39,313 bases of DNA from a virus. Below the pieces are notes generated by a model. That model did no database searches and had not been told where the DNA came from. It worked only from the letters and a program-made list of their open reading frames with translations. This document shows positions 3,060 to 37,526 of the stretch, one piece after another (the stretch's first letter is position 1; every line of letters starts with the position of its first letter). Where the stretch lies: the UHGV virus genome UHGV-0159558; one strand, given 5' to 3'. A program made the position numbers and the translations under genes.

Positions 3060-3284
3060 GTGGATAAAATAGACAAATTAAATCAAAAAATTTGTAAAAA
3101 AATAAAAAAAGAAATGAAAAAGAAAAACATCACACAAAAAAACATGGCTGATAAAATAGGAACGACAGCCCCTTATTTTTGTAGGTGCTTAAAGTCCTTG
3201 GAAGAGGGCAAAAGCATATTGACAGAAACAATTTTTAAAATTGCTGGAGCTTTAGAAATAGAGCCGGCGGAATTATTCAAATAA
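3060..3284 (+). CDS. Cro/CI-type (XRE) helix-turn-helix DNA-binding protein
   Basis: HTH signature ITQKNMADKIGTTAPYFCRCLKS...KSILTETIFKIAGALEIEPAELF. GTG start with AAGGGTG RBS. Confidence 0.55.
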   Translation: MDKIDKLNQKICKKIKKEMKKKNITQKNMADKIGTTAPYFCRCLKSLEEGKSILTETIFKIAGALEIEPAELFK

Positions 3285-3348
3285 TAACGCCCAAGGGCTT
3301 TATTATATATATAATAATCTCTCCTAGGTTATTTATATTAATTTTTCA

Positions 3349-3594
3349 CCAGCATTGCTGGGATTCCTACCCAAAATATTTTATTATATTTTTTCCCCTC
3401 ACACGAGGGGAAACCCCAATAATACTATTTTTTAGTAGTATTATTTAATAATACAATATATTATTTTGTATTACTTTTAAGTAATATATTTTAATGTGTG
3501 TAATACTTTAGGTATTAACGTAAATGTTAATATATATTTTCATATTTTAAACCTCACTAGTTTCTTATTTTATACCCCAGTTTCAAAGCTGGGG
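3349..3594. promoter_or_regulatory. cluster of perfect hairpins in a 780-bp non-coding region; candidate rolling-circle double-strand origin for the downstream Rep_trans gene
   Basis: Hairpins seen: CCAGCA-T-TGCTGG (3349-3361); CCCCTC-ACAC-GAGGGG (3395-3410); AATAATACTA-N8-TAGTATTATT (3418-3445); CCCCAG-TTTCAAAG-CTGGGG (3575-3594). GC-rich stems in AT-rich DNA. Confidence 0.45.
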
Positions 3595-3652
3595 TAAAAA
3601 TAAAAACAGGTAATAAAAATGTTTTTTTGTACCTTGAAATTCTAAACATTTT

Positions 3653-3747
3653 CGGATTTTCAAGGGTCAAAAAAACAATAAAATTACAACGGATTTGAAA
3701 CAAATATTTTCAAGAGTCGTTATTTTTAAAGGATTTTCAAGATTTCC
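3653..3747. repeat. iteron-like direct repeats of ATTTTCAAG (3656, 3706, 3733), with an inverted copy at 3642-3650 and a related GGATTTGAAAC at 3691
   Basis: Seen directly: CGGATTTTCAAGGGTC, ATATTTTCAAGAGTCG and GGATTTTCAAGATTTCC within 100 bp. Confidence 0.5.
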
Positions 3748-3821
3748 AAAAAACGACACTTGTCAAGTAAATATATAAGGGTACAACATTACTTTCAAAA
3801 AGTCAATAGAATTTTATATAT

Positions 3822-3839
3822 AAATTACAACTGAATAGA
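3822..3839 (+). promoter_or_regulatory. 18-mer AAATTACAACTGAATAGA, repeated at 9902-9919, each directly 5' of an intrinsic terminator
   Basis: Exact 18-nt identity at two loci. Chance is unlikely, but base composition is skewed. Confidence 0.4.
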
Positions 3840-3849
3840 AATTAGCAGC

Positions 3850-3877
3850 ACAAGGAATTTATAAGCCTTGTTTTTTT
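3850..3877 (+). terminator. intrinsic terminator (ACAAGG-N10-CCTTGT + T7)
   Basis: 6-bp stem plus T-run. Confidence 0.5.
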
Positions 3878-3924
3878 ATAACAATTTTTCAGACAACTAA
3901 ATATAAAACTGTATTTCTTGTTAG

Positions 3925-3955
3925 TCACATAAATTAAAAACTTGTGTGACTGATT
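3925..3955. promoter_or_regulatory. inverted repeat AGTCACA-N15-TGTGACT upstream of the Rep_trans gene
   Basis: Seen directly; 7-bp arms. Confidence 0.3.
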
Positions 3956-4069
3956 GGAAACACACGTAAATGATAAAAACAAGGAGGGTTTAAAATCGTT
4001 GACAATGGCACATTTATATATACAAGTCGTGACATAGATATCACGCAGGCGGCAGCAAATGCGCAGGCA

Positions 4070-5077
4070 TTGACTGGAATGTCTGGAACTGTAGAAAACA
4101 ATAAACTTGTATTTAAAAACTTCAATGTAGATAAATATGAGTTTATCAACTTTATCTCAATTTCAGAATACCGCAGTAATTGCCGTGTCTGTGTAGCTTT
4201 TAGTTACTCCAGATACGAGAATGAAGACAACTACAAATTAGCAGAGCGTCAAAGAACAATAAACGACGTTCATGCGGCAGTAGTTAGAATCTTTAGAAGT
4301 ATAACAGGGCTAGCCTTAACCAGTAACGACCTTGAAGTTCTGGCACTTGACATATCTAATCAACTTGAAGTTGAGAACATAAGAAACTATTATAATGTTC
4401 TTAATCTCATATATAGAGCATATAAACAGATAAACCCTAACGGGCGTTTGTACTTTGATACAGATAAGGAGCAGAGGCTAGAGCTTGACGGGCTAGACTT
4501 TAGAGAAGCTGGAAAGAAAAGGCGAGAGGCGAACGCATATTTTAAGATTTATAGCAAGAGAAAAGAGATTGAAGACACCAAGGGAGCGGCAAAAGCAAGA
4601 GGAAAGCGGCAGGCGTTACGTGGTGAACTCACTTTAAAGGGTGCAATGTTAAAAAAATATGACTTGCACATCGTGGGAAATATTCAAAAACTAGCACTTG
4701 AAAGAGTTTTAAAATGCGTGCTGGGAGAGATAATCCTTGACGGAATCAATAAAGAGCTTGAATTTAATAGATCTAAGCTTTTGCAAGAATACAAGCTCGC
4801 AGGTAGTAAGAAGTTGCAGGAAGTAACTTTAATGAATCTTCAATACATCTTTGATATTGATATTCTTGATGATGTGCTTACTTGTGAGAATTTTAATATC
4901 TCACGTAGTACGCTAGGTTATCACAAGAAAAATATAAAAGAGCTTTTAAAAGCAACAGAAACTAAAAGCGAGATAAAAAGAGTATTTTCAAAGAACTTTG
5001 AGAGACTAGCAAAGTTATTAAAAAAGATAGTCAAGGTTGATGTAAAAGTGGAGAAAGGGGCGATAAAATGGCAATAA
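4070..5077 (+). CDS. Rep_trans-family rolling-circle replication initiator (pT181 RepC/RepD-like)
   Basis: Motif ANAYFKIYSKRKEIED...LRGELTLKGAMLKKY aligns with the pT181 RepC active-site region ARIYNKKQERKD...WRVEIELKRDMVDYW (catalytic Tyr). HTH-like C-terminus. Start is uncertain: TTG 4070 or ATG 4079, with no strong RBS. Confidence 0.6.
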   Translation: MTGMSGTVENNKLVFKNFNVDKYEFINFISISEYRSNCRVCVAFSYSRYENEDNYKLAERQRTINDVHAAVVRIFRSITGLALTSNDLEVLALDISNQLEVENIRNYYNVLNLIYRAYKQINPNGRLYFDTDKEQRLELDGLDFREAGKKRREANAYFKIYSKRKEIEDTKGAAKARGKRQALRGELTLKGAMLKKYDLHIVGNIQKLALERVLKCVLGEIILDGINKELEFNRSKLLQEYKLAGSKKLQEVTLMNLQYIFDIDILDDVLTCENFNISRSTLGYHKKNIKELLKATETKSEIKRVFSKNFERLAKLLKKIVKVDVKVEKGAIKWQ

Positions 5078-6322: not shown

Positions 6323-7873
6323 ATGCAAATAGATGGAAACTCACTAAACCTGTTAAAATGGAGATTTGACGAGGCTAAGCAGTGCAGAAATGATATTTTA
6401 CCGCTATATCAAAAAGCTTACGAGAATTTCACAGTTGAGGGAATGAAACTGAATAACATAGACTCAACAGGGGTTAAATATGCGTCAAAGCTAGCTAATA
6501 AGCTATCATCATATATTATGAACTCCAATTATATTTGGGCGTACATAGAGACCCCAAGATATGAAAAAATACCAAAAGAGGATAAAGTCCAATTTGACTA
6601 TATTACCGAGGTTGTATTCGACCACATTCAAAAAGAATCTAACTTTGAGTTAGAAAAAATCAAGCTTCTCAGAGATTACTTAATAGGTACAACAGCCTTT
6701 AAAGTGAGATATACAGGAGATGTTAAAAACCCTGTTTTAATTGAGCATTGTCCAATTCTAAGCGTTTATCTAGCTAAAAATAGAGCTGGAAGAACAGGAG
6801 ATGTATTTTACAAAAGGGAAAAAGTAAAAAAGCACGAGCTTATTGACTTGTTCGGAGAAGAGGTATTATCAAATGAATTTGTCGATAAACTTACAGAACA
6901 AGACCAGTTTGAGCTAATAGAGGCAACAATTTATGACTATTCTAAGAAATTGTTTATATATGCTGTGTCTTTGGATGAGAGTTTTAATCAGATAGTAAAG
7001 TACGAGGAAACGGATTACAATCCGTGGGTAGTTGCTAGATTTGAATCTATGAGTGACAGTCCGTATGGGATGGGACCTGACACAAAAGCAGTCTTGACGC
7101 TGGAAGAACTCCAAAAGATAAAAAAAAGAATATCTAAAATTGGAGAACACCAAGCGAACCCAAGTTATACGGCGTGGACGGCAGAACCTAAATATATAGC
7201 CCAGTCAAGACTAAATACTCCAGGTAAAATATCAATCCTGGGAACAAATAAAGGTCAAACTCAAATCGAACCTTTTAACAGGGGAGAGGGTACAGATATT
7301 AAATTCTTTGAGATGGAAGAGTACAAATCAACACTTGTTGACCTGTTCTATATAAACCTTATAGAAAATATATCTAGTGTGGACCAGTTAAAAAATGTTA
7401 CAGCAACCACAACACAAGCTCTTGTCACTGAATTATCAAGACAAATAGAGCCTACATATTCACTAATGCAAAAGGAAATGCTTGAACCAATAGTTATGAA
7501 AGTGTTCTATTGCTTAACAAAAGCGAACTACTTTGACCTTACTCAGATATCAATTTTAAAAGAAGACCCTAGAATTAAAATAAGATTCTACAATGCTTTA
7601 ACCATTGCTCAAGAGCAAGACGACCAGGAAAGAGCTAACATGTACTTCCAAACAATAGCGTCAGTGCTTGGTGGAATGGTTGCGGCTAATAACGTCAATG
7701 CAGTTGAATTTATAGACGCCGCCCAAAAGAGATTTAGAGTTAAAGCAAAAGAGTTTAAATCAGGGGAAGAAACTGAAAAACAAACTGAGCAAACTATAAA
7801 TCAAATGTCACAAGAGCAAGGGGATATTGCTATGCAAGCGCAAGTCGAAAATAAGGGAGTGATAGGACAATGA
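6323..7873 (+). CDS. portal (head-to-tail connector) protein
   Basis: 516 aa, with GGGGG RBS. Sits between terS and the scaffold/capsid genes. Acidic, helical C-terminus. Loose resemblance to podovirus connector proteins. Confidence 0.55.
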   Translation: MQIDGNSLNLLKWRFDEAKQCRNDILPLYQKAYENFTVEGMKLNNIDSTGVKYASKLANKLSSYIMNSNYIWAYIETPRYEKIPKEDKVQFDYITEVVFDHIQKESNFELEKIKLLRDYLIGTTAFKVRYTGDVKNPVLIEHCPILSVYLAKNRAGRTGDVFYKREKVKKHELIDLFGEEVLSNEFVDKLTEQDQFELIEATIYDYSKKLFIYAVSLDESFNQIVKYEETDYNPWVVARFESMSDSPYGMGPDTKAVLTLEELQKIKKRISKIGEHQANPSYTAWTAEPKYIAQSRLNTPGKISILGTNKGQTQIEPFNRGEGTDIKFFEMEEYKSTLVDLFYINLIENISSVDQLKNVTATTTQALVTELSRQIEPTYSLMQKEMLEPIVMKVFYCLTKANYFDLTQISILKEDPRIKIRFYNALTIAQEQDDQERANMYFQTIASVLGGMVAANNVNAVEFIDAAQKRFRVKAKEFKSGEETEKQTEQTINQMSQEQGDIAMQAQVENKGVIGQ

Positions 7874-8855: not shown

Positions 8856-9890
8856 ATGAATACAAAAGAAAGATTACTTAAAGCCCCTCTTAACATTCAA
8901 CTTTTTGGAGCAACTAAAAACGTTGAATTAACAGAGGGAGAACAAGCCAAGTACGTAAACAATATTATGAGAGCTTTAGGGCAAACTAACAGTTTCCCTT
9001 TAAAGCAGTACATGGCAACATCAGCTTCAACAAATGCGGCTTATTCAGTTTTCTATGTAGCTGGAACTTTATCAGCTAGAGATAGAGAGGCAAACGCAGA
9101 CACTACAAACCAAAACTTCAAAGATGTAAAAGGGGTAGCAAACCAAAATCTTTTAACATCAATTAGAGTTGTACCAACTGAAATGGAAGTACCTTTATGG
9201 GTAGATGACAGAGACTTTGATAAATCACAACTTAATGAGCAATCAGCATTACAAACAATGCAAGTAGACGCTATTTATAGAGGTTGTGACGAAAGAATAT
9301 CACTACTATTAAAGGATATGTACCAAAATAAAAAGAGATCTGTTAAAAACTCAGCAGGGACAGCAGTTAATATAACAATACCTACAACAAACTTCTACGG
9401 AGATAAAGCAAAACTTTTCTCAGACCCAGATAACGTTAAGAAGTTTAGAAATATGATGAGAAAAGCTCAACACATGGCAAAGGCTAATAATCTTAAAATT
9501 GCAATAGTTTGCGGTGATGAGGGTAACGTTGAAATGGCAGATTGTGAGAAATTCTCAAATAAAGATTGGGTAAACGTTTCAGGAGAAACTACTGTTCAAT
9601 CAGGTTCAGCAATGCAAAGATTACTAGGTGGAAATGTAGAGGAGTTATGGACATTTGATGAAGTGTTCTATGAAAAAACTACTAAAGTAACTAATGGAGT
9701 TATAGCTGTTATCATAGAAAAGTCATTAGGTCAAGATAATAAAAAAGCTTCTATTAGACCAACTATTGAACACGTAGGATTTAAGAAAGCTTACTTCATG
9801 GATGTTGAGGTTGCTAATGCTACTGAACTTGTTAATCCAAATGGGGTATTTTTCTTTGAGTACGCTAAAACAGTATCTTCAATAGGATAG
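8856..9890 (+). CDS. major capsid protein
   Basis: 344 aa with N-terminal LNIQLFG (an NLQLF-like motif common at capsid N-termini). Follows the scaffold gene and is followed by a strong terminator. Confidence 0.6.
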   Translation: MNTKERLLKAPLNIQLFGATKNVELTEGEQAKYVNNIMRALGQTNSFPLKQYMATSASTNAAYSVFYVAGTLSARDREANADTTNQNFKDVKGVANQNLLTSIRVVPTEMEVPLWVDDRDFDKSQLNEQSALQTMQVDAIYRGCDERISLLLKDMYQNKKRSVKNSAGTAVNITIPTTNFYGDKAKLFSDPDNVKKFRNMMRKAQHMAKANNLKIAIVCGDEGNVEMADCEKFSNKDWVNVSGETTVQSGSAMQRLLGGNVEELWTFDEVFYEKTTKVTNGVIAVIIEKSLGQDNKKASIRPTIEHVGFKKAYFMDVEVANATELVNPNGVFFFEYAKTVSSIG

Positions 9891-24506: not shown

Positions 24507-26084
24507 ATGGAGGTGGTAAAGTTGGGGTTTGGATTATCTACTAGACAGGAACGTAGAAAAGTAACTGTATCCTATGAAAAGGTTATAAAGAAAATGCACC
24601 TAGGACAACAAGAAATGGTTCGTGAAGTCCTAAAAGGTGAGAAAAAATATTTCGCTCTTATGGCTCACCGTAGATATGGGAAAGACTTCTTAGCGTTAAT
24701 AGTCCTTATTCTATGTGCTGTTAAATATCCTGGAAACTACTATATCTTTGCACCATATTTTAGACAGGCTAAAGAGATTGTAGTTGACGGAAAAACGCTT
24801 GACGGAGTACCTATGATTGAAAATCTATTCCCTAGAGTGCTGCTAAAAAATCCGAAATCTCAATTCATAGTAAATAGGTCTGACTGGTCTATCACTCTTT
24901 ACAACAATTCAAAGATATTCATTCGTGGAGCAGACAACCCTAATAGTAACGTAGGGGTTGGAGCTAGAGGAATAATCTACACCGAGGCTGCTCTAATGAA
25001 ACCAGGATTCTACCAATATATGAAACCAGCTATCGACGCAGTAATTAATAAAACTGGTTTCGGAGTAGTAATCTTTATTTCTACTCCAAGGGGTAAAGAT
25101 AACTGGTTCACAAGACTATTTGTAGACTACTTTAAAAAGTTTGATAAACACCCAGAAATTAAAAAACTTTGGTATGTGGATATTCAAAGAGCAAGTGAAT
25201 CTAAAGCTTGGAATGGTAACCCTGTAATGAATATTGTAGAAAGAGAGAAACAAAAGGCTGAAATGTTACCAGAGATTTATGCACAAGAATATGAATGTGC
25301 ATTAAACACAAGTTGTATGGGAGCTTATTATACGGACCAAATAGCACAAGCTATAAAGGATAAAAGAATTGGTAGGTTTGGAAAATATGAAGAGACTTAC
25401 GATGAGTATGCAAATACTAAGCTTGAATATATGGGATACTATTTCAAACATGCCCCTTTATATGTATCTTGGGATATAGGAAAACGTGACCACACAGTTA
25501 TATGGTTTTTTCAAATAAACCCAAGTAATGGCAATATAAGGTTTATCCATCACTACAGAAATAAAGGCGTTGGAGCAGACCATTTTTGTGAGTATATTAA
25601 AAACTATGTAAAAGGTAAATACTTTGGTAGTGAACCTATAATGATATTACCTCACGATGGAGATGTAGAAGAATGGACATCAACCTCAAAAAGAAGTGAC
25701 TACATTAGAGAGTTCTTCTTTAGCGATGTAAGAGTACTATCAAAAACAGACTTAGCAGGAGCTAATATGGCTACCCTTATGGCACAGATAAACAAGATTA
25801 GATTCTTGTTTACAAGAGTAGAGATTGATTCCGAGGAGTGCAACATAGGGCTAGATAAACTTAGAAGCTATATTAAAAAGTATGATAAGAACAAACAGGA
25901 ATATGTAGATATTCCAGACCATGACGCTAATGATAAAGCCTCGGATGACGCAGATTCATTCAGAACAGCTATGATTTACTATGATTTGTATTTAAAAATT
26001 CAACCAGGATTTGAAAAATTTGAAAATACTGTATTTGATACAGGAGGAGCTATAACTTATGAAGATGAAGATTATTTCTTTTAA
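24507..26084 (+). CDS. terL: terminase large subunit
   Basis: Walker-A-like MAHRRYGKDF. An IIYTEAALM segment. RNaseH-like nuclease Asp motifs WDIGKRDH, ILPHDGDVEEW and DHDANDKASDD. ISTPRGKDNWF segment. Possible TTG start at 24522 after GGAGGTGG. Confidence 0.7.
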   Translation: MEVVKLGFGLSTRQERRKVTVSYEKVIKKMHLGQQEMVREVLKGEKKYFALMAHRRYGKDFLALIVLILCAVKYPGNYYIFAPYFRQAKEIVVDGKTLDGVPMIENLFPRVLLKNPKSQFIVNRSDWSITLYNNSKIFIRGADNPNSNVGVGARGIIYTEAALMKPGFYQYMKPAIDAVINKTGFGVVIFISTPRGKDNWFTRLFVDYFKKFDKHPEIKKLWYVDIQRASESKAWNGNPVMNIVEREKQKAEMLPEIYAQEYECALNTSCMGAYYTDQIAQAIKDKRIGRFGKYEETYDEYANTKLEYMGYYFKHAPLYVSWDIGKRDHTVIWFFQINPSNGNIRFIHHYRNKGVGADHFCEYIKNYVKGKYFGSEPIMILPHDGDVEEWTSTSKRSDYIREFFFSDVRVLSKTDLAGANMATLMAQINKIRFLFTRVEIDSEECNIGLDKLRSYIKKYDKNKQEYVDIPDHDANDKASDDADSFRTAMIYYDLYLKIQPGFEKFENTVFDTGGAITYEDEDYFF

Positions 26085-26102: not shown

Positions 26103-27494
26103 ATGTTAGAGTTTAAAAAAGAATATTTTCAAACAGAAACAAATAGACACCTATACCCTACAACTCTTGACCTCTCGAAAGCAGAAGTCTATGGGTGCAA
26201 GGATAGAGAAGCGTATATGTATAAGATACCTAATGATAGATATGCAAGCAATGCTGGTAATATAGACTTTTCTCTATATCCTAACGGGGTATGGAGTGAC
26301 TATACAGGGATAAAAATAGTTGAAAGATTACCGTTTTTTCAACCTAGTATCAATTTTAATAAGCTAGGAGATATAACACCTACTAACCTTAATAAACTTA
26401 AAGATGAAATTAAAAAACATATAGTTGATATTGAAACTGCTATTATGGAAAATTATATATTTATAGACACTAAAAATGCTGGACAAAACAATTTACCATA
26501 TTTACCAGATGATTGTGTATGGTTTAGAAATGGAATTACTGGAAATATAGAAGCACTGCCAGTGGGAGAACTATATGATAAATATAAAAGTATGATAGAT
26601 AAAGTCTATAACGATGTGTATAAATTATTATTAAAAGATAAAGAAGCTATGTCACAGGAACTTAAAGAACTGTTAGCCGAAGCTATGAAGCAATTAGAAA
26701 ATTTTAAAGTAGAAGCACAAGAACAGTTTAGAGAAGAATTAAAAAAAATAGAAAATAAAACCAAAATAGAGATAGAATCTTATGTCATAGATGATATAAA
26801 ACCTGGCATAAATTCTTTTGCAGAAGAAAAAAAAGAAGAACTCCAACAATTTATAGATGAAAACAAAGCTAATCTTAAAGGGAACAAGGGAGATAAAGGG
26901 GACAAAGGAGACCCAGGACCTAAAGGAGATTCTATAAAAGGAGATAAAGGAGATATAGGACCTCGTGGGGAAAAAGGGGATATAGGACCTGTTGGTCCTC
27001 GTGGTGAACCAGGACCTACTGGTCCTCGTGGAGAATTTGTAAAAGGAGATAAGGGTGAAAAGGGGGATACAGGAGATACAGGACCTCGTGGGGAAAAGGG
27101 AGACCCAGGACCTACTGGTCCTCGTGGGGATTCTATAAAAGGTGAAAAGGGGGATAAAGGTAATACAGGTCCTGCTGGAGAAAAAGGTGACACAGGAGCT
27201 AGTATAAGTAAAATTACAAGCACTGGAAGTACAGAAGCTGGAAACAATTATTCAGTGCAAACAGATAACGGAGTAATAATAGGAGCTTTCACAGCACCAA
27301 GAGGTCCTAAAGGGATTGATGGGGCTAAAGGTGAAAAGGGAGACAAAGGAGATACAGGAGCAATAGTTACAGCTCAAGGTCAATTCGCTTTTCATGTAGA
27401 TAATAAAGGACATCTTATTTTAACTCACGAAGAGGATACAGCACCTAATTTCTCATTAAGCGAAGACGGGCATTTAATCTACACAATAAATTAA
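26103..27494 (+). CDS. collagen-like tail fibre protein (Gly-X-Y repeats)
   Basis: Long G-X-Y runs (GDKGDKGDPGPKGD, GPRGEKGDIGPVGPRGEPGPTGPRGE). GC-rich codons produce a stop-free shadow ORF on the opposite strand. Confidence 0.65.
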   Translation: MLEFKKEYFQTETNRHLYPTTLDLSKAEVYGCKDREAYMYKIPNDRYASNAGNIDFSLYPNGVWSDYTGIKIVERLPFFQPSINFNKLGDITPTNLNKLKDEIKKHIVDIETAIMENYIFIDTKNAGQNNLPYLPDDCVWFRNGITGNIEALPVGELYDKYKSMIDKVYNDVYKLLLKDKEAMSQELKELLAEAMKQLENFKVEAQEQFREELKKIENKTKIEIESYVIDDIKPGINSFAEEKKEELQQFIDENKANLKGNKGDKGDKGDPGPKGDSIKGDKGDIGPRGEKGDIGPVGPRGEPGPTGPRGEFVKGDKGEKGDTGDTGPRGEKGDPGPTGPRGDSIKGEKGDKGNTGPAGEKGDTGASISKITSTGSTEAGNNYSVQTDNGVIIGAFTAPRGPKGIDGAKGEKGDKGDTGAIVTAQGQFAFHVDNKGHLILTHEEDTAPNFSLSEDGHLIYTIN

Positions 27495-27506
27495 AGGAGG
27501 TAACAA

Positions 27507-29843
27507 ATGGCAACAATAGATTTAGGACTTGTAAGAGGTAAAGATGGTCTTAATGTAAAAGAATTGAGATTAAAAGAATCAACAGACACTCAAAACGTAT
27601 ATGAGGTTGTTTTAAGTGATGATAGTGTAGCAGGGCAAGTTACAGTACCAGCAGGGAAACAAGGACCTCAAGGGATTCAAGGGGTTAAAGGTGAAACAGG
27701 AGCTCGTGGAGCTAATGGAGCTGATGGAGCTCAAGGGGTTGGAATTTCTAAAATTGCATTTAAAAATGAAAATCTTGATGGTAGCTTTATATACGCAGTT
27801 ACTCTTACAAATAATCAAACATATGAAATAACGTGTCCAATAGGTCCTAAAGGGGATAGAGGAGATACAGGTAGTGCTGGGGCTAAAGGTGAAGCAGGAG
27901 CTCAAGGGGTTGGAATTTCTAGGATAGCATACAAAAATACAAATCAGGATGGTAGTTATGTATATACAGTTTCTCTTACTAACGGAACATCACACGAAAT
28001 AACATGTCCAATAGGTCCTAAAGGTAGCACTGGTGGTGCTGGTCCACAAGGTCCTAAAGGGGACGCTGGAGTTCAGGGGGTTCAAGGGGTTGGAATTACT
28101 AATGTCAGATACAAACAAACGTCAAGTAATGGAAGCTATATCTATACAATAGTTTTATCAAATGGAAACACATATGATATTACATGTCCAATAGGTCCTA
28201 AAGGGGATAAAGGAGACGATGGAGATACTAGTAGTATAACTTTAACATGGAGTGCTATACAAAATAAACCAACAACATTCCCATCAACTTGGAGTGAAAT
28301 AACAGGAAAACCTAGTTCGTTCCCTCCATCAGCTCATAATCAAGATTGGGGCACAATAACTGGTATACCTGGCACATTTACACCATCGCCTCATAAACAT
28401 TCTAAAATAGATATAACAGATTTTCCAGAAATTCCAAAACCTATATCTGCACTTCCAATAGGAACTATAATTCCTTATGTAGGAGGTTCGATACCACTTG
28501 GATTTTTGCTATGTGATGGTAGAGAGATAAAACAATTTGATTATCCATTATTATATAATTTACTTCCAACAGGTTGGAGTATAAACGAAGCTGGATTTAG
28601 ACGTATGGCTAAAATGGAAATTCCAGCAATGCAAAGTGCAAGTCAAAATGGATTCACTGTAACAGAAAGTAGCAAATGGCAAGATTCGGAAGCAGGTTGG
28701 AAAATATTTAATAGAAAATATTTTGATTATTTTTCAACAGCCGATGGTAATGCTAGTGGTTATGTAGAAATAAGTTATCCTGAAAAAAGAGCAGTTAGCA
28801 AAATAATTTTTAAAGCTAGAGATAGAGAAGCTAATTCAAAATGGAAAAGAGTTGCTTTTTATGGTGATGATAAAAAACTTTGGGAAGAAAGTTTTGTTTC
28901 AACTTCTCCTCAAACTAATAAAGTTTTTGAAAGAGAACTACCTTTTAATGAGACTATTGAAGAATACAATAGGTTTAAAATAGAAATAGAAGGAGAAAAT
29001 ACAGAGGTTATTTCGCTTTCAGAACTAGAAATATATACTGTTAATCTAAAAGACATTCCTATATCATCAAATCTACAAACTAAAAAGTATCTTCCAGATT
29101 TAAGAGGTAAGTTTTTAAAAGGAAATACAAGTGATAGAAAATTACTAAGTTTCGAATATCAAGGCGTAGGCAAGCACAAACATAAAGAGATTCTTAATGG
29201 TTGGGAAAATATTGATTCTTTAAATGCTGAGTTTATAGACTTGAAACCTTTAGTTACTGGGTTGACGTCTGAGAAAGATGAAAACGTTGGTTATGGCGAT
29301 AATGCAACTGTGTTAAGAACAGGAGATGAACTGGCAACAGGTGATGAAAACGTTCCTAACAATATTTCTGTTAACTACATAATTAAAGCTTTAAATGTAG
29401 ATGATGAAGTACCTCCAAGTTCTGTTTTAACAGAGATTAATAATAAAATAGAAAACAATAAAACAGATATTGAAGAATTAAGAGAAAACATAAATGTTTT
29501 AGACGGCAATACAAACTATGAAACAGTAGAGTTATTCTCTTCGCAAGTTGCTATACCAGATAAAATCACTTTAAATGAAAGTATAAAGAATTTTAGACAA
29601 ATTGAAATTTGGACTTGTTTTAATGAAAGAAATTACAAAGTGTCGCATTTATTAAATACAGATACTATAACTTATAGTGATTCCGAAACAAGTGCAACTC
29701 AAAACTCTATGAATAGATATTTTTTTGAAACCTTTGGAAATAGATATACTTTTGCTATTTTCAAAACAAATGGTACAGATGTATTAGTAGCTAATTATGA
29801 AACTGCTTGTATAACTAAAATAATAGGAATTGGAAGAAAATAA
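27507..29843 (+). CDS. tail fibre or receptor-binding protein with collagen-like segments and a triplicated 57-aa module
   Basis: G-X-Y runs interleaved with three copies of GVGIS[KR]IA[FY]KN...G[ST][FY][IV]Y[AT]V[TS]LTN...[EH]ITCPIGPKG. Long beta-rich C-terminal domain. Confidence 0.6.
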   Translation: MATIDLGLVRGKDGLNVKELRLKESTDTQNVYEVVLSDDSVAGQVTVPAGKQGPQGIQGVKGETGARGANGADGAQGVGISKIAFKNENLDGSFIYAVTLTNNQTYEITCPIGPKGDRGDTGSAGAKGEAGAQGVGISRIAYKNTNQDGSYVYTVSLTNGTSHEITCPIGPKGSTGGAGPQGPKGDAGVQGVQGVGITNVRYKQTSSNGSYIYTIVLSNGNTYDITCPIGPKGDKGDDGDTSSITLTWSAIQNKPTTFPSTWSEITGKPSSFPPSAHNQDWGTITGIPGTFTPSPHKHSKIDITDFPEIPKPISALPIGTIIPYVGGSIPLGFLLCDGREIKQFDYPLLYNLLPTGWSINEAGFRRMAKMEIPAMQSASQNGFTVTESSKWQDSEAGWKIFNRKYFDYFSTADGNASGYVEISYPEKRAVSKIIFKARDREANSKWKRVAFYGDDKKLWEESFVSTSPQTNKVFERELPFNETIEEYNRFKIEIEGENTEVISLSELEIYTVNLKDIPISSNLQTKKYLPDLRGKFLKGNTSDRKLLSFEYQGVGKHKHKEILNGWENIDSLNAEFIDLKPLVTGLTSEKDENVGYGDNATVLRTGDELATGDENVPNNISVNYIIKALNVDDEVPPSSVLTEINNKIENNKTDIEELRENINVLDGNTNYETVELFSSQVAIPDKITLNESIKNFRQIEIWTCFNERNYKVSHLLNTDTITYSDSETSATQNSMNRYFFETFGNRYTFAIFKTNGTDVLVANYETACITKIIGIGRK
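27735..28205 (+). repeat. three tandem ~171-bp coding repeats inside the tail-fibre gene
   Basis: Repeat starts at nt 27735, 27906 and 28086, derived from the protein repeat positions. Confidence 0.55.
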
Positions 29844-29845
29844 AA

Positions 29846-30289
29846 ATGGAGGAAATTATGAAAACATCAGATAAAGGTATTGAGTTCATTATCAAAGAAG
29901 AGGGAGAAGTCCTACACGCTTATAGATGTCAAGCTGGAGTGTGGACAATAGGAGTAGGGCACACTGGAGGAGTTACACCAGATATGAAAATAACCAAAGA
30001 ACAGTCAAGACAACTTTTAAAAGCTGACTTATGTAGATTTGAAAAGGCAGTTAATGAAACTATTAAACACGAACTTCTTCAGCATCAATTTGATGCACTC
30101 GTAAGCTTTAGTTTTAATGTAGGAACTCAAGCTTTTATAAACTCAACGCTAGCTAAAAAAATAAATGCTAACGCACCATATAATGAAATTAGAGAACAGT
30201 TCCTAAGATGGAATAAAGCTGGAGGAAGAGTTCTTGCAGGACTTACAAGTAGAAGAAAAAGAGAAGCGAAACTATATTATGGAGAGTGA
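29846..30289 (+). CDS. phage lysozyme (GH24 muramidase endolysin)
   Basis: GIEFIIKEEGEVLHAYRCQAGVWTIGVGHT...QFDALVSFSFNVG...FLRWNKAGGRVLAGLTSRRKREAKL closely matches the T4/lambda-type lysozyme signature (E-x8-D/C-x5-T catalytic region, FLRWNKAGG). True start is probably ATG 29858 after GGAGGA. Confidence 0.85.
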   Translation: MEEIMKTSDKGIEFIIKEEGEVLHAYRCQAGVWTIGVGHTGGVTPDMKITKEQSRQLLKADLCRFEKAVNETIKHELLQHQFDALVSFSFNVGTQAFINSTLAKKINANAPYNEIREQFLRWNKAGGRVLAGLTSRRKREAKLYYGE

Positions 30290-32525: not shown

Positions 32526-33197
32526 TTAAAGCTTCTTTACTAGGTCCGCCATCTCTTCTCTTAGTAGTTTTATAGCCGTTTCATGCTTGTAGATCTCATC
32601 ATTAATTTCCATTATCCTGTCTTGGATACTCTTTTCACTTTTAACATTTATCGTTTTGCTGGCGTCGGCAACTACCATTTTGTTGGCATCGGTAAAATGG
32701 TTACGAGCCTCTTTAATTCCTTTACCTGTTCTTACTTCTCCATCTAATACTTTAAACACTAATGCTGGAGGTGTAGCTTTATTAATAACCTCTTTTACCT
32801 CTACATCAGAAAGGGATTGTACCCTATCTTTATAGCTTGGATTCTCCAGATACAACCTATATCTACCCCTTAGTAAATACACTTGGTCCTTGTTGTACCC
32901 AAGCGTTGTGTACCACTCTGTAAAAGTTTCCTCAAGGTTATTTTTAGCAAATATCTCCCTTGCTTTTTCCAAAGTTCCCCCTAATGTTAGGGCAATTTCT
33001 CCAATTCTTTTTCTTTGATATAGAAGTTCTTTCTCATAAGTTATCAAAGAGTTCTTATCATCCGTATCTATCACGAGCCTATTATAGTCAAAATAAAGCT
33101 CCTCGGCTATTACTTGACTTATTGTATTACTTTCTTGTGAAAGGGCAGGAACGACCCTTTCACGACGTCTAAGAGCTTTGTTAAATTTACTTGCCAT
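32526..33197 (-). CDS. partition partner protein (ParB-like centromere-binding protein candidate)
   Basis: Immediately downstream of parA and overlapping it by 11 nt. Basic N-terminal tail MASKFNKALRRRERV. GGGAGA RBS. No canonical ParB GERRxRA motif recognised. Confidence 0.4.
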   Translation of the reverse strand: MASKFNKALRRRERVVPALSQESNTISQVIAEELYFDYNRLVIDTDDKNSLITYEKELLYQRKRIGEIALTLGGTLEKAREIFAKNNLEETFTEWYTTLGYNKDQVYLLRGRYRLYLENPSYKDRVQSLSDVEVKEVINKATPPALVFKVLDGEVRTGKGIKEARNHFTDANKMVVADASKTINVKSEKSIQDRIMEINDEIYKHETAIKLLREEMADLVKKL

Positions 33198-33921
33198 ATC
33201 TCAATATCTCCCTTGTTAAATTTTCAAAGTCAGTTGCACCATTTGACCTTGGTGAGTATTCAAATATAAACTGACCGCACATCTCCGCTTCTTTAAGTTT
33301 TATATTCTCTCTTATAAAACTTACTAACATATCATCACGATAATCAATCAAGAGCTCCCCAATACCCTCTAAAAACTTTTTGTCGTTGGGTACACGACTA
33401 AGATACCCTTTATGTATTAGATTAGGTTTTAGAGTACTTTTATGGCTTCCTATAAAAGACTCTAAAATATCGAATCCATCTAAGCTAAACGAGTGAGGCT
33501 CTATTGGTGTTAAAACTATATCACTTGCATTAATTGCATTAGTCTCAGGCTTTTTCATATCAGGACGGCAGTCAATAATCACAAAATCATAGTCGTTAAT
33601 CACTAAAAGCTGCTCTTTAATCACAAAATCAGATGTGATACTAACTTTTAAATCATCATCTAGGTTTCTCATTCTTAGATCTCCGGGTATCAAATCTAGG
33701 TTATCTGTTATCTTGACTATATTCCCTTTAAAATCCCTCTTCATAATAGCGTCATAAATATTTCGAGAGCTCTCGAAATTTAATGATGTACTAAGGTTTC
33801 TTTGAAAGTCTAAGTCTATAAGTAAAACCTTTTTATCTCTTTGTAACATTCCAGCTACTTCTCTAGCTCCTGTTGTCTTTCCTGTTCCACCCTTTTCAAC
33901 CATAAAACTAATTATTTTCAT
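33187..33921 (-). CDS. parA: ParA/Soj-family partition ATPase
   Basis: Deviant Walker A: VEKGGTGKTT. Also LLIDLDFQRNLS and VIIDCRPD motifs. GGGGG RBS. Confidence 0.8.
   Translation of the reverse strand: MKIISFMVEKGGTGKTTGAREVAGMLQRDKKVLLIDLDFQRNLSTSLNFESSRNIYDAIMKRDFKGNIVKITDNLDLIPGDLRMRNLDDDLKVSITSDFVIKEQLLVINDYDFVIIDCRPDMKKPETNAINASDIVLTPIEPHSFSLDGFDILESFIGSHKSTLKPNLIHKGYLSRVPNDKKFLEGIGELLIDYRDDMLVSFIRENIKLKEAEMCGQFIFEYSPRSNGATDFENLTREILRYGK
33760..33779. promoter_or_regulatory. 20-bp palindrome ATTTCGAGAGCTCTCGAAAT inside parA (copy 2 of the dispersed motif)
   Basis: Seen directly. Identical 18-bp core to 24351-24368. Confidence 0.5.
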
Positions 33922-34435
33922 TTTCTACCCCCTGTATTAAAGTAAGTATATTAAGAAATTGTTTTTCAAAATGCTCTACAATCTCTTTTCTCTCTTTATC
34001 ATCAAAGCAAATATCAGGTATTTTACTAAGTTTTTCACTAGCTTTATAATACCAGTCTAAGTACTCTTTATAATACTTGCTGGCGTTTTCAAGCTTTAAC
34101 TCCTCTTGAATTTCAACATCTCTTTTTTGGAGTTTGTATATTAATTCTTGTCCACACTCAGGCAAAATATATTTTATCGGTTCTTCTCTTTTTTCTTGCA
34201 TAAGAAACCAATATTTATTTTTAAATTTTTCCATTAATCTTTCTTTTTCGTGAGGTTCAAAATATATATCTGGAATTGCTTTTAATTTTTTTAAAGCATA
34301 ATGATACCAGTCAAGCTGTTTTTCTAACTCTACATTGTCTTTTAATCTTGTTCCTGATAATTTCTCATGCTCTTCTTTTAGTAATTCCAATCTTTTTTTG
34401 TAGTTTATTTTCATTACTCCACCCCTTTTAAACAA
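33908..34435 (-). CDS. hypothetical protein with an internal tandem duplication (175 aa)
   Basis: Two ~40-aa repeats: QLDWYHYALKKLKAIPDIYFEPHEKERLMEKFKNKYW and YLDWYYKASEKLSKIPDICFDDKERKEIVEHFEKQF. GGGGTGGAG RBS. Confidence 0.45.
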   Translation of the reverse strand: MFKRGGVMKINYKKRLELLKEEHEKLSGTRLKDNVELEKQLDWYHYALKKLKAIPDIYFEPHEKERLMEKFKNKYWFLMQEKREEPIKYILPECGQELIYKLQKRDVEIQEELKLENASKYYKEYLDWYYKASEKLSKIPDICFDDKERKEIVEHFEKQFLNILTLIQGVENENN

Positions 34436-35331
34436 GCTCTTATAAAATTAATATACATAGTTTTATTATTTCTTTTCATAGTTTCAATAAAGCCTTTATC
34501 CATTCCATCAGATATTAATTTTTCAAGTCCTTTTTCTTCTTCCTCTGGTGTAAGGTCTTCAGGTTCTACAATTTTTATATCTTCAATTTCTTCTTTCTTT
34601 ACTTCTTTTTTAGGCTTTTTCTTTGGCTCTTCTTTTATTATTTCAGGTTCTTTTATATCCCAATGTAATATGACTTTATCAACTTCTTTTCCTGCTCTTT
34701 TTCTCTCCAGTTCTAAGTTTATTATATTAGTTTTTTCAAATTCTTTTTTAGTCACCCCTATAACCTTAGCTTCGACATCTGCCCATCTATATGATTCAGG
34801 AACATTTAATAAGTGCCTGAAAAACTCTCCTGAATATTCTTTCTTTTTTAGCCCTTTATAGCTCATCACAATTTGATATATTTTTTTAGCATATTTACCC
34901 TTTAGACTTGCAAATTCTAAAAGCTCATGTTGGGTAAAATTTCCAGTAAGATTAAAAAACAAATGAATATATTTCTTTTTAAGAACAAAAATAATCTTTT
35001 TATTATCTTTGCTGAAACATAGCTTATCAAATATATGTTCACAAACATTATACTCATCTTCCTCAAAGTAAATTTTAGTATCATAAATTTTCTCTAGTGA
35101 TTCTGTTAATCTCTTCATAGAAACATTACCTTGAAGTAATTTTTTTATAGCTTGTGAGGATAATTCTAATTCTAAATCTTTATCTACTGCCACATTCATG
35201 TGGTCGGTAACTTTTTTTCTTGCTGAGTAAGCTAAAGTTAATACTAAATCCATTTCATAAGCTGAATAATTATTCATAGAAGTAGCAAAATCTTTACTAT
35301 ACTCTACTATTGCATTTGATTCTTTTTCCAT
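34414..35331 (-). CDS. Rep_3-family theta-replication initiator (RepB-like)
   Basis: NNYSAYEMDLVLTLAYSARKK matches the Rep_3 N-terminal signature (N.L..A.Y.LSL.E.RL.L.L). The true start is ATG 35331 with a GGGG RBS. Iterons lie 270 bp upstream. Lys/Glu-rich C-terminus. Confidence 0.6.
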   Translation of the reverse strand: MEKESNAIVEYSKDFATSMNNYSAYEMDLVLTLAYSARKKVTDHMNVAVDKDLELELSSQAIKKLLQGNVSMKRLTESLEKIYDTKIYFEEDEYNVCEHIFDKLCFSKDNKKIIFVLKKKYIHLFFNLTGNFTQHELLEFASLKGKYAKKIYQIVMSYKGLKKKEYSGEFFRHLLNVPESYRWADVEAKVIGVTKKEFEKTNIINLELERKRAGKEVDKVILHWDIKEPEIIKEEPKKKPKKEVKKEEIEDIKIVEPEDLTPEEEEKGLEKLISDGMDKGFIETMKRNNKTMYINFIRACLKGVE

Positions 35332-35363
35332 TCTAACCCCTTTCTTTAAAATTGTAATCATAG

Positions 35364-35389
35364 TGTGAAAAAAATAATAAATTTTCACG
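35364..35389. promoter_or_regulatory. inverted repeat GTGAAAA-N12-TTTTCAC in the rep promoter region (autoregulation operator candidate)
   Basis: Seen directly. Related TTTTCACAC(TT) partial iterons are at 35447 and 35561. Confidence 0.35.
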
Positions 35390-35602
35390 CTTAATTAAAT
35401 ATACAATATTTTTTAAATAAAATCTACCCAAAAATTAGGTTTTTTTCACACTTTAAAGTACGACATTTTGTAACAAATGTTGGAATATAAATTTTAATTA
35501 TAAATAAGTAATAACCACATTTTATATTCAATGAGTGAAAAAAGCAACAATTTTTCACATTACATTATAAACATCTTTAATACTTTAGAAGTAAAAACAG
35601 TT

Positions 35603-35728
35603 CTGACAAAACGTCACACTTTGCTGACAAAACTTCACACTTCACTGACAAAACTTCACACTTCACTGACAAAACTTCACACTTTGCTGACAAAACGTCA
35701 CGGAAAACTGACAAAACTTCACTTTTAT
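35603..35728. repeat. iteron array: six contiguous 21-bp direct repeats (consensus CTGACAAAACTTCACACTTCA); origin of theta replication
   Basis: Units start at 35603, 35624, 35645, 35666, 35687 and 35708. The central copies are perfect; the outer ones degenerate. Head-to-tail with no spacers, so not a CRISPR array. Confidence 0.8.
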
Positions 35729-35894
35729 GTCGCTAAAGTCCTTGATTTTAGGGAAGTCTTGAGCCTCTTAAACTATATAAACTTATAAACTTATAAATAG
35801 GTAAAATTTTTTCACTTTATTTTTTAAATAATGTGACAAAATGGTACCCTATCACTTGAACTTCCCATCAAAATTTAATTTTTACATATTAAGT

Positions 35895-36026
35895 TTGACA
35901 CAATTTAATATGTATGGTATTATTAAAGTAGCTTTAAAGCCGTTTTATCCTCACAAGATAAAACAAACCCAAAAACCAAACTGTAATCAGAAAGCCTATC
36001 ACCCAATAGGCTTTCTTCTTTTTTTG
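35895..36026 (+). ncRNA. candidate small RNA: TTGACA-17-TATTAT promoter, ~95-nt transcript with two hairpins ending in an intrinsic terminator
   Basis: -35 at 35895-35900 and -10 at 35918-35923. Hairpin GTTTTATC-CTCACAA-GATAAAAC (35943-35965). Terminator GAAAGCCTAT-CACCCA-ATAGGCTTTC + T-run (35990-36026). No coding ORF with an RBS. Confidence 0.4.
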
Positions 36027-36042
36027 CTCTGCGTAAGTTTTA

Positions 36043-36065
36043 AAAAATTTGAAACTTCTAGGTAA
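36043..36065 (+). promoter_or_regulatory. second copy of the promoter-like 24-mer (AAAAATTTGAAACTTCTAGGTAAT)
   Basis: 23 of 24 positions identical to 24366-24391. Confidence 0.4.
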
Positions 36066-36220
36066 TTGTTATACTATTAATTAGAACCTGATTTTTTTAA
36101 TTTAATTTATTCATTACTACTACTTTGATTTTTAAACCCCTAATAAGATATTATCTGTATCTATAAAAATCATTAGGAGGTTAAAAGTAGTAAAAAGTTT
36201 TTAACCGTTATTTACAAAAC

Positions 36221-36269
36221 AAACCCCCACGCTTTTCCGTATTCCTTTAGTGTGGGGGTTTTGTTATTT
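36221..36269. terminator. hairpin AAACCCCCAC-N21-GTGGGGGTTT with T-rich flanks (terminator for minus-strand gene 36268-36822 and/or plus-strand transcripts)
   Basis: 10-bp perfect stem. T-rich on both sides. Confidence 0.5.
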
Positions 36270-36822
36270 ATGGTAACATCTTTTCTCTATCTTTCCAAAA
36301 TCCGACCCTATGTTTTTTAAAAGTAAACTTCAAAACAGCGTTTGTATGCTCTTCACGAGTAAGATTTTTAAATTTAACATCATCTACATAAACACTAAGT
36401 TTACTCATTTCATCATCAGAATATAGATGGTCTATTATTTCTAAAGATCTGTACCAACCTTTTTTTACTTTCATTCTTCCAGCAGTTCTGACCTCACAAG
36501 AAAATTCAGGACCATCAACACGAAACTTTCTACTACTTCCAACGTCGGACCAACCAATGGTTATTTCTGTGTTAGCTTGAATGTCTTTTATCTTATCTTC
36601 AAGCATTATTCTTGCTAGTTTTTCCTTATCCATAAAATCAGTAAGTTTAATTTTAGGGTATTTGTAAAGTCTTTTTCTCCATCCACCTCTTGGACTTTGG
36701 ATTGTTCTTTCTCTAGTGGTATAAAAATATTCTATTGCTCTTTGTCCATCTGTTACTTCATTTTCAGGGCTAATCCCTGCAAAATCTAAAAATAATAAAA
36801 AATCTTCTAATCTTTCAGCCAT
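36268..36822 (-). CDS. hypothetical protein (184 aa)
   Basis: AGGAGG RBS (TAAGGAGGAAGAAAATG). Confidence 0.45.
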   Translation of the reverse strand: MAERLEDFLLFLDFAGISPENEVTDGQRAIEYFYTTRERTIQSPRGGWRKRLYKYPKIKLTDFMDKEKLARIMLEDKIKDIQANTEITIGWSDVGSSRKFRVDGPEFSCEVRTAGRMKVKKGWYRSLEIIDHLYSDDEMSKLSVYVDDVKFKNLTREEHTNAVLKFTFKKHRVGFWKDREKMLP

Positions 36823-36905: not shown

Positions 36906-37526
36906 TTAACTTACTTTTTTACTATTCCATAATATTTGTCTAAGATTTTTAAGTTCTGACATAGTTGCAGTATCAGGGTCAATTTCTGTATCTTTACAAG
37001 CTTTTAATATCTCTTCATTTGAATGTTTAGACTTTAAAACATCAATAAATATTTTTCTGTCTTTAGGTGTAGGCATATCATCAGCTTTTAATTTATCTTC
37101 TGCCTCTTTCATTAGTTGCTCTGGTGATTTGAATTGTTCTAAATCTTCACCAGTGTATAGGCTTAGACCTATACCGAAAAGGGCTATATTTTTAACTAGA
37201 CAACGCATTATACTATCACTTATTTGTCTAGTGTTAGGCTCTGCGACTGCATTGTGGCGGTTATCCATTACAGGAAGAAACATTTTTTTAGTTTCTCCGA
37301 ACATTGTTACTGTAGTTTTTACCATGTGACAAGTTCCACGACTAAATAATGGGAATCCGTCGGCGTCTTCCAATACTTCAAATGTAAAGTTTGGGTCTTG
37401 CTCCATAGCTAACTTGTAGGCGTTAGCCCAGCTTATATAATTTAACCCTTTATAATCCTTTTCCACTTTACCGCTAAGGTCTAGCATATACATGCTATCA
37501 AACATTTCTTTTTTCATATTTTCCAC
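36906..37526 (-). CDS. single-strand annealing protein (Erf/Rad52-like recombinase)
   Basis: LNYISWANAYKLAMEQDPNFTFEV and the QISDSIMRCLVKNIALFGIGLSLY segment resemble the Erf/Rad52-type SSAP core (...SYA.K..L..LFGIG). GAGGTGG RBS. Confidence 0.45.
   Translation of the reverse strand: MENMKKEMFDSMYMLDLSGKVEKDYKGLNYISWANAYKLAMEQDPNFTFEVLEDADGFPLFSRGTCHMVKTTVTMFGETKKMFLPVMDNRHNAVAEPNTRQISDSIMRCLVKNIALFGIGLSLYTGEDLEQFKSPEQLMKEAEDKLKADDMPTPKDRKIFIDVLKSKHSNEEILKACKDTEIDPDTATMSELKNLRQILWNSKKVS

Follow-up and report, generated by a model that had tools for sequence, protein, structure and literature searches.

The window analysed here is the whole 39,313-nucleotide stretch of the virus genome UHGV-0159558. 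It contains a rep gene, transcribed from the minus strand as the first gene of an operon, and a tandem array of 21-bp repeats upstream of it. This replicon is located in a phage genome, a circumstance that had gone unnoticed in the original prediction, and we compared it with related loci (34 loci fetched, about 30 related contigs compared; designated by L numbers below). A large protein database contains 34 clusters of this Rep, at 92-37% identity. The features of the replicon are as follows.

32526-34414, minus strand: remainder of the operon (168-aa orf, 33908-34414; ParA, 33187-33921; 223-aa protein, 32526-33197)
34414-35331, minus strand: rep, 305 aa (identified by Pfam, PDB profile match, AlphaFold and Foldseek)
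35362-35390: IR-1, inverted repeat GTGTGAAAAAAA-n-TTTTCACGC, between the putative -10 element and the rep start codon
35398-35426, minus strand: putative rep promoter, -35 TAGATT (35426-35421), 17-nt spacer, TG-TATATT -10 (35403-35398)
35440-35452: lone half-site TTTTTTTCACACT (GTGTGAAAAAAA in rep orientation)
35534-35559: IR-2, AGTGAAAAA-n8-TTTTTCACA, second copy of the IR-1-type inverted repeat, adjoining the array
35603-35728, minus strand: iteron array of six 21-bp units, nnnn(G)TGTGA(A/C)GTTTTGTCAG in rep orientation
35729-35764: spacer between iterons and AT-rich repeats, 36 bp in the window, about 42 nt on average in relatives
35765-35800: AT-rich short repeats, TAAACTTA x3.5 on the plus strand, AGTTTATA in module orientation

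Results

Rep protein and operon

The gene neighbouring the array had been identified as Rep_3 from the sequence, and both constituent Pfam domains score above their cut-offs: Rep3_N/WH1 (PF01051; 7.8e-15, 55.9 bits, cut-off 22.4) and Rep3_C/WH2 (PF21205; 1.7e-08, 35 bits, cut-off 21.1). A search of the PDB with the Rep-family profile matched RepE (1REP, E=5e-5) over WH2. The AlphaFold model (mean pLDDT 76) contains two winged-helix domains and has a RepE-like fold; its best Foldseek matches in the PDB are RepE54-iteron complexes (target TM 0.72-0.76), and the R6K pi-iteron complex (2nra) and RepE with iteron dsDNA and DUE ssDNA (8aan) were also retrieved. WH1 spans approximately residues 13-126 and WH2 residues 134-226, followed by a K/E-rich disordered linker (230-256) and a C-terminal three-helix domain (262-301). 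Linker and helical domain together make up residues 230-305 (encoded by 34414-34620); the domain is conserved, has no counterpart in RepE and pi, and could serve for contacts with proteins of the host replisome. The predicted start of rep at 35331 is supported: the ATG is preceded by the ribosome-binding site AAAGGGG, and homologues of 305 aa begin at the same methionine.

Downstream of rep, overlapping genes on the minus strand encode the 168-aa product, ParA (AAA_31, 8e-36) and the 223-aa protein, in this order, and the synteny is maintained in all relatives. The 223-aa protein, which has no Pfam or NCBIfam match and belongs to PHROG families of unknown function only, is a putative centromere-binding protein. 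No Pfam, PHROG or NCBIfam match was obtained for the 168-aa orf (33908-34414). This orf is optional, being cleanly missing from L002, L005, L011 and L029 with neighbours otherwise identical; a gene termed OrfX adjoins rep in Acinetobacter Rep_3 plasmids too (PMC13141974). A weak threefold 21-bp repeat (TRF, 74% matches) within parA (33570-33631, minus strand) may be due to chance.

Anatomy of the iteron array

Six head-to-tail 21-bp units with perfect central and degenerate outer copies had been predicted at 35603-35728, and TRF and an in-register repeat search agree on this array. TRF reports 35603-35722 with period 21, 5.7 copies, 86% matches, a score of 163 and the consensus CTGACAAAACTTCACACTTCA; in the repeat search, units start in register at 35603, 35624, 35645, 35666, 35687 and 35708. 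Units 2 and 3 are exactly the predicted 21-mer, unit 4 differs from it in the last 2 nt only and unit 1 at T11G and the last 2 nt, and units 5 and 6 match it over the first 15 nt and have lost the 3' end. All six exact matches to the 14-nt core TGACAAAAYKTCAC in the 39.3 kb fall inside the array. With up to two mismatches allowed there are 8 matches, compared with 1.56 expected (0 of 100 shuffles reached 8), and the window contains no second cluster of the iteron motif. Each iteron consists of a lineage-specific half, GTGTGA(A/C), and a half common to the family, GTTTTGTCAG. The array lies upstream of rep, 272 bp from its ATG. Direct repeats of 17-22 bp beside rep, in a phase of approximately two helical turns, are characteristic of iteron-type theta replicons with a Rep_3 initiator.

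Contigs that encode a Rep identical to that of the window have 3, 5 or 6 iterons in constant 21-bp phase with the core GTGA-N-GT-Y-TTGTCA; the differences in copy number may be real variation or assembly collapse. Many short-read contigs stop 165-400 bp upstream of rep, within the array (those ending inside it are L003, L004, L006, L012, L015, L019, L020 and L031-L033). Contigs with the same Rep differ in iteron number (3, 5, 6 or 8), which could reflect breakage or collapse of the assembly at the repeats or be genuine.

Putative promoter and candidate operators

Partial iteron copies and one GTGAAAA/TTTTCAC inverted repeat had been described between the array and rep. These elements are present, but there are two inverted repeats rather than one. 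The sequences AGTGTGAAAAAAA (35362-35374) and TTTTTTTCACACT (35440-35452) form a perfect 13-nt inverted pair, and the inverted repeat GTGAAAAAAA...TTTTCACGC covers 35362-35390 (IR-1). In IR-2, each arm is the variable half of the iteron followed by an A-run; its counterpart in L001, L002 and L020 is AGGGAAA...TTTCCCT, and the L001 counterpart of the lone half-site at 35440-35452 is GAGGGAAAAAAA. Both inverted repeats have TTCAC(AC) in common with the iteron. From the array towards rep the order is thus IR-2, lone half-site, promoter-like element and IR-1, the last just downstream of the -10. Judged from their sequence and placement, IR-1 is a candidate autorepression operator and IR-2 a candidate Rep-dimer site beside the array. 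We infer the rep promoter from conservation: the window shares GGGTAGATTT and TGTATA(T/G)T with L001, L005 and L007. A scan with the consensus promoter recovered no convincing rep promoter, because the -35 element of the putative one is weak.

AT-rich repeats and the putative origin module

The putative origin extends past the array as first reported, since the AT-rich AGTTTATA repeats at 35765-35800 (TRF call, 35769-35797) belong to the same conserved module. The 40-mers at 35760-35819 are among the least stable 2-4% of the window, and 35765-35800 is a candidate DNA-unwinding element. Equally low duplex stability is found in AT-rich DNA between the array and rep (35380-35439 and 35480-35519), so this placement is provisional. 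Aligned in module orientation, 13 loci have three to four (A)GTTTATA repeats, a spacer of about 42 nt that is partly conserved (GGCTCAAGACTTC...AAATCAAGG), and then the iterons, variable half first; the distance and polarity of the AT-rich motif relative to the iterons are constant in all 13. Three lineages (L010, L011 and L013) have the entire module in the opposite orientation with respect to rep, its internal polarity being preserved. Inversion as a block with polarity kept is expected of a self-contained origin rather than of part of a promoter. DnaA boxes, which occur in the origins of many but not all Rep_3 iteron replicons, form no cluster near the array; their window-wide counts are at chance level, and the sole DnaA-like site nearby is the one-mismatch TTATCCTCA at 35945-35953. 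GC skew tracks gene orientation, with turning points close to 32-33 kb and 1 kb, and provides no origin mark.

Iteron clusters outside the origin exist in the iteron plasmids P1 and F, and the array could by analogy be a locus that binds Rep for copy control or incompatibility, comparable to P1 incA or F incC, with initiation elsewhere, for example in the AT-rich non-coding region 3290-4070. We consider this highly improbable. The least stable DNA of the window is indeed at 3417-3486 and not beside the array, and the unwinding element is assigned from sequence only; however, the array is the only one of its motif in the window, it is always linked to the conserved AT-rich repeats with fixed polarity and distance, and the succession of AT-rich region, iterons, operator and rep is that of F ori2.

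The region 3290-4070 itself comprises approximately 800 bp of non-coding DNA with a 36-bp AT-rich repeat (x1.9), flanked by a small HTH-like gene (3060-3284) on one side and the first late genes on the other. Possible roles are gene regulation, packaging or, as a second origin, lytic replication.

Iterons and operators covary with Rep WH2

Every relative examined (Rep identity 35-92%) has an array of 2-8 copies of a 21/22-bp repeat approximately 100-400 bp upstream of rep. Read in the orientation of rep, each unit consists of a lineage-specific half followed by the family-wide half (G/A)TTTTGT(C/A)A. Representative iterons, with the identity of the respective Rep to that of the window, are listed below.

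Window, L007-9, L023/24; Rep identity 100%, 62%, 44%; iteron GTGTGAAGTTTTGTCAG
L001-4; Rep identity 92%; iteron AGGGAAGTCTTGTCAA
L005; Rep identity 76%; iteron GTGTGACGTTTTGTCAA
L011; Rep identity 54%; iteron GGTACCATTTTGTCAA
L014; Rep identity 50%; iteron TAGTACGACAnnnTGTAACA
L018; Rep identity 47%; iteron ACCACGAAGTTTTGTCAG
L017; Rep identity 35%; iteron ATGACGGTGTTTTGTAACA

Over approximately 4.5 kb, the DNA of the window and L002 is 95-100% identical apart from two separate patches, one covering the iterons and operators (35350-35720, 65-73% identical) and the other coding for WH2 (34657-34856, 72-83% identical); the WH1-coding DNA between them is 95-98% identical. At the protein level, 19 of the 23 substitutions that distinguish the Rep of the window from that of L001 (92% identical) are in WH2 residues 171-224 (Fisher p=1.3e-12), where they map to helix 183-198 and the beta-hairpin wing 203-226 of the AlphaFold model. 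Between the window and L001/L002, the iteron changes from GTGTGAAGTTTTGTCAG to AGGGAAGTCTTGTCAA, its variable half from GTGTGAA to AGGGAA, and all half-sites outside the array change from TGTGAA to AGGGAA with zero cross-occurrence. TGTGAA is found outside the array only together with TGTGA-type iterons (three times in the window, twice in L005, twice in L007/8 and once in L023), and AGGGAA only together with AGGGAA iterons (five times in L001/2 and four times in L020). IR-1 likewise covaries with the iteron type in L001, L002, L004, L005, L007 and L020. AGGGAA operators were predicted for L020, a contig that breaks inside the array, from its L001-type WH2, and were then found. No clear operator with their own iteron half was seen in L018 and L010.

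Direct repeats are often located upstream of parA in type Ib partition loci. The array lies upstream of an operon in which ParA and a small downstream gene are combined with rep, and it might accordingly be viewed as the partition centromere (parS) of the 223-aa protein, a reading to which we attach very little credence. The 223-aa protein of the window is 100% identical to that of L002, 99% to that of L008 and 98% to those of L011 and L014 (ParA, 94-98%), yet the repeats of these relatives with near-identical partition proteins are unrelated in the variable half, namely AGGGAAGTCTTGTCAA, GGTACCATTTTGTCAA (inverted) and TAGTACGACATTTTGTAACA. Because the repeats vary with Rep WH2 while the 223-aa protein stays nearly constant, the centromere reading is contradicted and we rejected it. 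These comparisons support the conclusion that the repeat sequence follows Rep WH2 and not the partition protein. The iteron-type oriV and autoregulation layout proposed for the region upstream of rep is thus supported by covariation of WH2 with repeats and half-sites, and not by layout alone.

That the array plays no part in replication, being a chance or degenerating tandem duplication or a repeat within the coding sequence of an 85-aa ORF (35531-35788), is scarcely credible: whole-array frames occur in L001, L002, L017 and L018 as well as in the window, but arrays with a conserved core persist in every lineage (Rep identity 35-92%) and co-evolve with Rep, and no ORF spans the array in L007 and L008, which have the same iteron, or in L026 and L028, which have exactly the same Rep. 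We therefore rejected a coding function for 35531-35788; as had been suggested, this ORF, with its LTKLHTS repeats, is just the array translated.

The replicon is part of a phage genome

Phage and associated genes of the window are listed below.

6323-7873, plus strand: portal
8856-9890: major head protein
24507-26084: large terminase (weak match)
26103-29843, plus strand: collagen-repeat fibres with tail-collar domain
29846-30289: lysozyme
36906-37526: Sak single-strand annealing protein

Phage structural and lysis genes thus occur together with Rep_3 and ParA on one replicon, and a scan of 27 ORFs revealed no integrase; based on this combination, the element is probably a phage-plasmid. No tRNA genes were detected in the window. 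Besides Gly-X-Y repeats of the collagen type and the tail-collar domain, the two fibre genes (26103-29843) include a tandem duplication of 171 bp (27726-28082).

The longest contigs of the relatives are 20-50 kb, none exceeding 50 kb (12 of 12 contig look-ups), and the position of rep varies widely among contigs of 38-39.7 kb, which indicates circular permutation. The ends of the window have no terminal overlap. These contig statistics are compatible with an extrachromosomal state and support it without proving it. The only organism names attached to relatives are those of Cetobacterium sp. MAGs, and the host is possibly Cetobacterium.

At the nucleotide level, 34300-36100 matched none of 50,697 phage and 72,556 plasmid records. 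In tblastn searches, Rep matched nothing in the phage collection and only plasmids at less than 30% identity. Single-protein scans of IMG/VR and GTDB genomes with Rep returned no relative, and from profile scans we obtained two IMG/VR contigs and two short fragments of Cetobacterium MAGs, and nothing else. Identity of the portal to the 50,697 reference phages does not exceed 24%; the best coverage among its matches was obtained with Fusobacterium phage FNU4, the others being small podophages of Vibrio and Pelagibacter. The phage backbone thus appears to be uncatalogued. Literature searches retrieved neither a description of this element nor one of any Rep_3 phage-plasmid from Cetobacterium or Fusobacterium. 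No Rfam family reached the gathering score in the window, and nothing credible was seen in 35300-36300.

Orphan iteron-like sites and a candidate small RNA

Two single-copy sites in the window resemble the iterons of sibling lineages: TGACAAAATGGTACCCT (35834-35850) is of the L011 type, and AGTACGACATTTTGTAACA (35457-35475), which is inverted, of the L014 type. Orphan sites matching sibling-lineage iterons are also present upstream in L001, L005, L010, L011, L013, L014, L020 and L023. L020 has a window-type orphan site at the same position, approximately 130 nt upstream of rep, and upstream of their own origin, which is inverted, both L011 and L013 have kept a window-type iteron along with the corresponding operator inverted repeat. 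Such sites could be scars of origin or cassette replacement, or functional cross-reactive sites.

A candidate small RNA is located at 35895-36026 on the plus strand. It has a near-consensus promoter (TTGACA-17-TATTAT with TG, 11/12; 35895-35923) and an intrinsic terminator (35989-36016) followed by a T-run, and the predicted transcript of about 98 nt (35929-36026) would fold into two hairpins (z=-6.6). It would be transcribed away from the AT-rich origin repeats, approximately 100 bp off. The segment 35858-36056 is 100% identical in L001, L002, L007 and L008, while the adjoining origin diverges. The candidate has no Rfam match; control of copy number and activation of the origin are possible functions. 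An overlying ORF of 74 aa (35841-36065) is probably not coding.

Discussion

Considering the anatomy of the array, the modelled fold of Rep and the way in which WH2 covaries with iterons and operators, we conclude that this array very probably forms the core, bound by Rep, of a plasmid-type (theta) origin of replication in a phage-plasmid of approximately 39 kb. For DNA binding, the division of labour between monomers and dimers, the site of melting and handcuffing, we rely on the RepE/RepA/pi paradigm. By analogy with these initiators, Rep monomers would bind the six iterons, and the spacing of 21 bp, or two helical turns, would place all of them on one face of the DNA. WH2 would read the GTGTGA(A/C) half of the iteron and WH1 probably the TTTTGTCAG half. 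The assignment of WH2 to GTGTGA has independent support, as RepE WH2 contacts GTG/GtCA of TGTGAC in the F iteron (PMC4980987). The Rep-iteron complex may then melt the adjoining AT-rich AGTTTATA repeats at 35765-35800, where the host helicase would be loaded.

In IR-1 and IR-2, the WH2 half-site is present without the other half of the iteron and is followed by an A-run. As predicted from the same paradigm, Rep dimers would bind through WH2 only to the inverted repeats in the promoter (35362-35390) and beside the array (35534-35559), and this binding would repress the rep-orf-parA-parB operon. RepA likewise occupies an operator inverted repeat as dimers and iterons as monomers (PMC4857107). 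There is no second iteron cluster in the window, so copy number is presumably limited by autorepression and handcuffing of arrays. Lytic replication of the phage may use a different origin.

Among the closest known systems is F, in which an AT-rich region and direct iterons are followed by an operator and rep. Both replicons share these elements, including an inverted-repeat operator with about 8 bp in common with the iteron, and the window Rep, as modelled, superposes on RepE54 bound to iteron DNA. The differences are also clear: protein identity is approximately 15%, the window Rep has an extra C-terminal helical domain, and the F iterons are 19 bp in length as opposed to 21 bp. Moreover, the replicon described here is located in a phage genome and has neither a DnaA-box cluster nor an incC-like second array. 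P1 is a temperate phage-plasmid with RepA, 19-bp iterons (incC/incA) and ParAB. It resembles the present element in its iteron-dependent initiator, iterons upstream of rep, ParA-type partition and maintenance of a phage as a plasmid. However, P1 has the incA control array, DnaA boxes and a 94-kb myovirus genome, as opposed to one array, no DnaA boxes and a genome of approximately 39 kb. The half-site GTGTGA of iteron and operator resembles the TGTGAC contacted by RepE WH2 (PMC4980987). In pPS10 RepA and R6K pi, monomers initiate at iterons and dimers repress at the operator (PMC4857107), a behaviour that we predict by analogy for the window Rep, and the pi-iteron complex (2nra) is among its top fold matches. 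Nevertheless, pPS10 and R6K are small plasmids of Proteobacteria, and the relationship to them is visible at the profile and fold level only. The closest plasmid Reps in tblastn searches (27-29% identity) are from Bifidobacterium, Staphylococcus, Enterococcus and Fusobacterium varium. Rep_3 plasmids of Firmicutes, Bifidobacterium, Fusobacterium and Acinetobacter differ from the element in having Reps below 30% identity, and no PLSDB plasmid shows DNA similarity to it.

One can further envisage that a split cassette, consisting of WH2 with the iterons and operators, is swapped or co-mutated between lineages, and that the orphan sites serve as decoys or sensors for the Rep of co-infecting relatives. 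We regard this scenario as rather unlikely. If it were true, a change of the split cassette on a near-identical phage backbone would create new incompatibility groups, and the orphan sites would titrate or sense a rival Rep as a weapon between competing phage-plasmids.

The mechanism proposed for the origin is classical and textbook; because phage-plasmids with iteron replicons and ParA are known (P1), only the element, a member of an uncatalogued phage family, is new. Added interest comes from an unusually clean natural specificity switch, an invertible origin module and orphan sibling-type sites in every member. The interval 34414-35830 is a defined candidate minimal replicon for an uncultured phage-plasmid family of approximately 39 kb, whose possible hosts, Fusobacteriaceae of animal guts including Cetobacterium, are bacteria for which genetic tools are scarce. 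Finally, the near-isogenic variants point to helix 183-198 and wing 203-226 as the readers of GTGTGA versus AGGGAA in a Rep_3 initiator, and they illustrate how incompatibility groups can arise inside one phage lineage.
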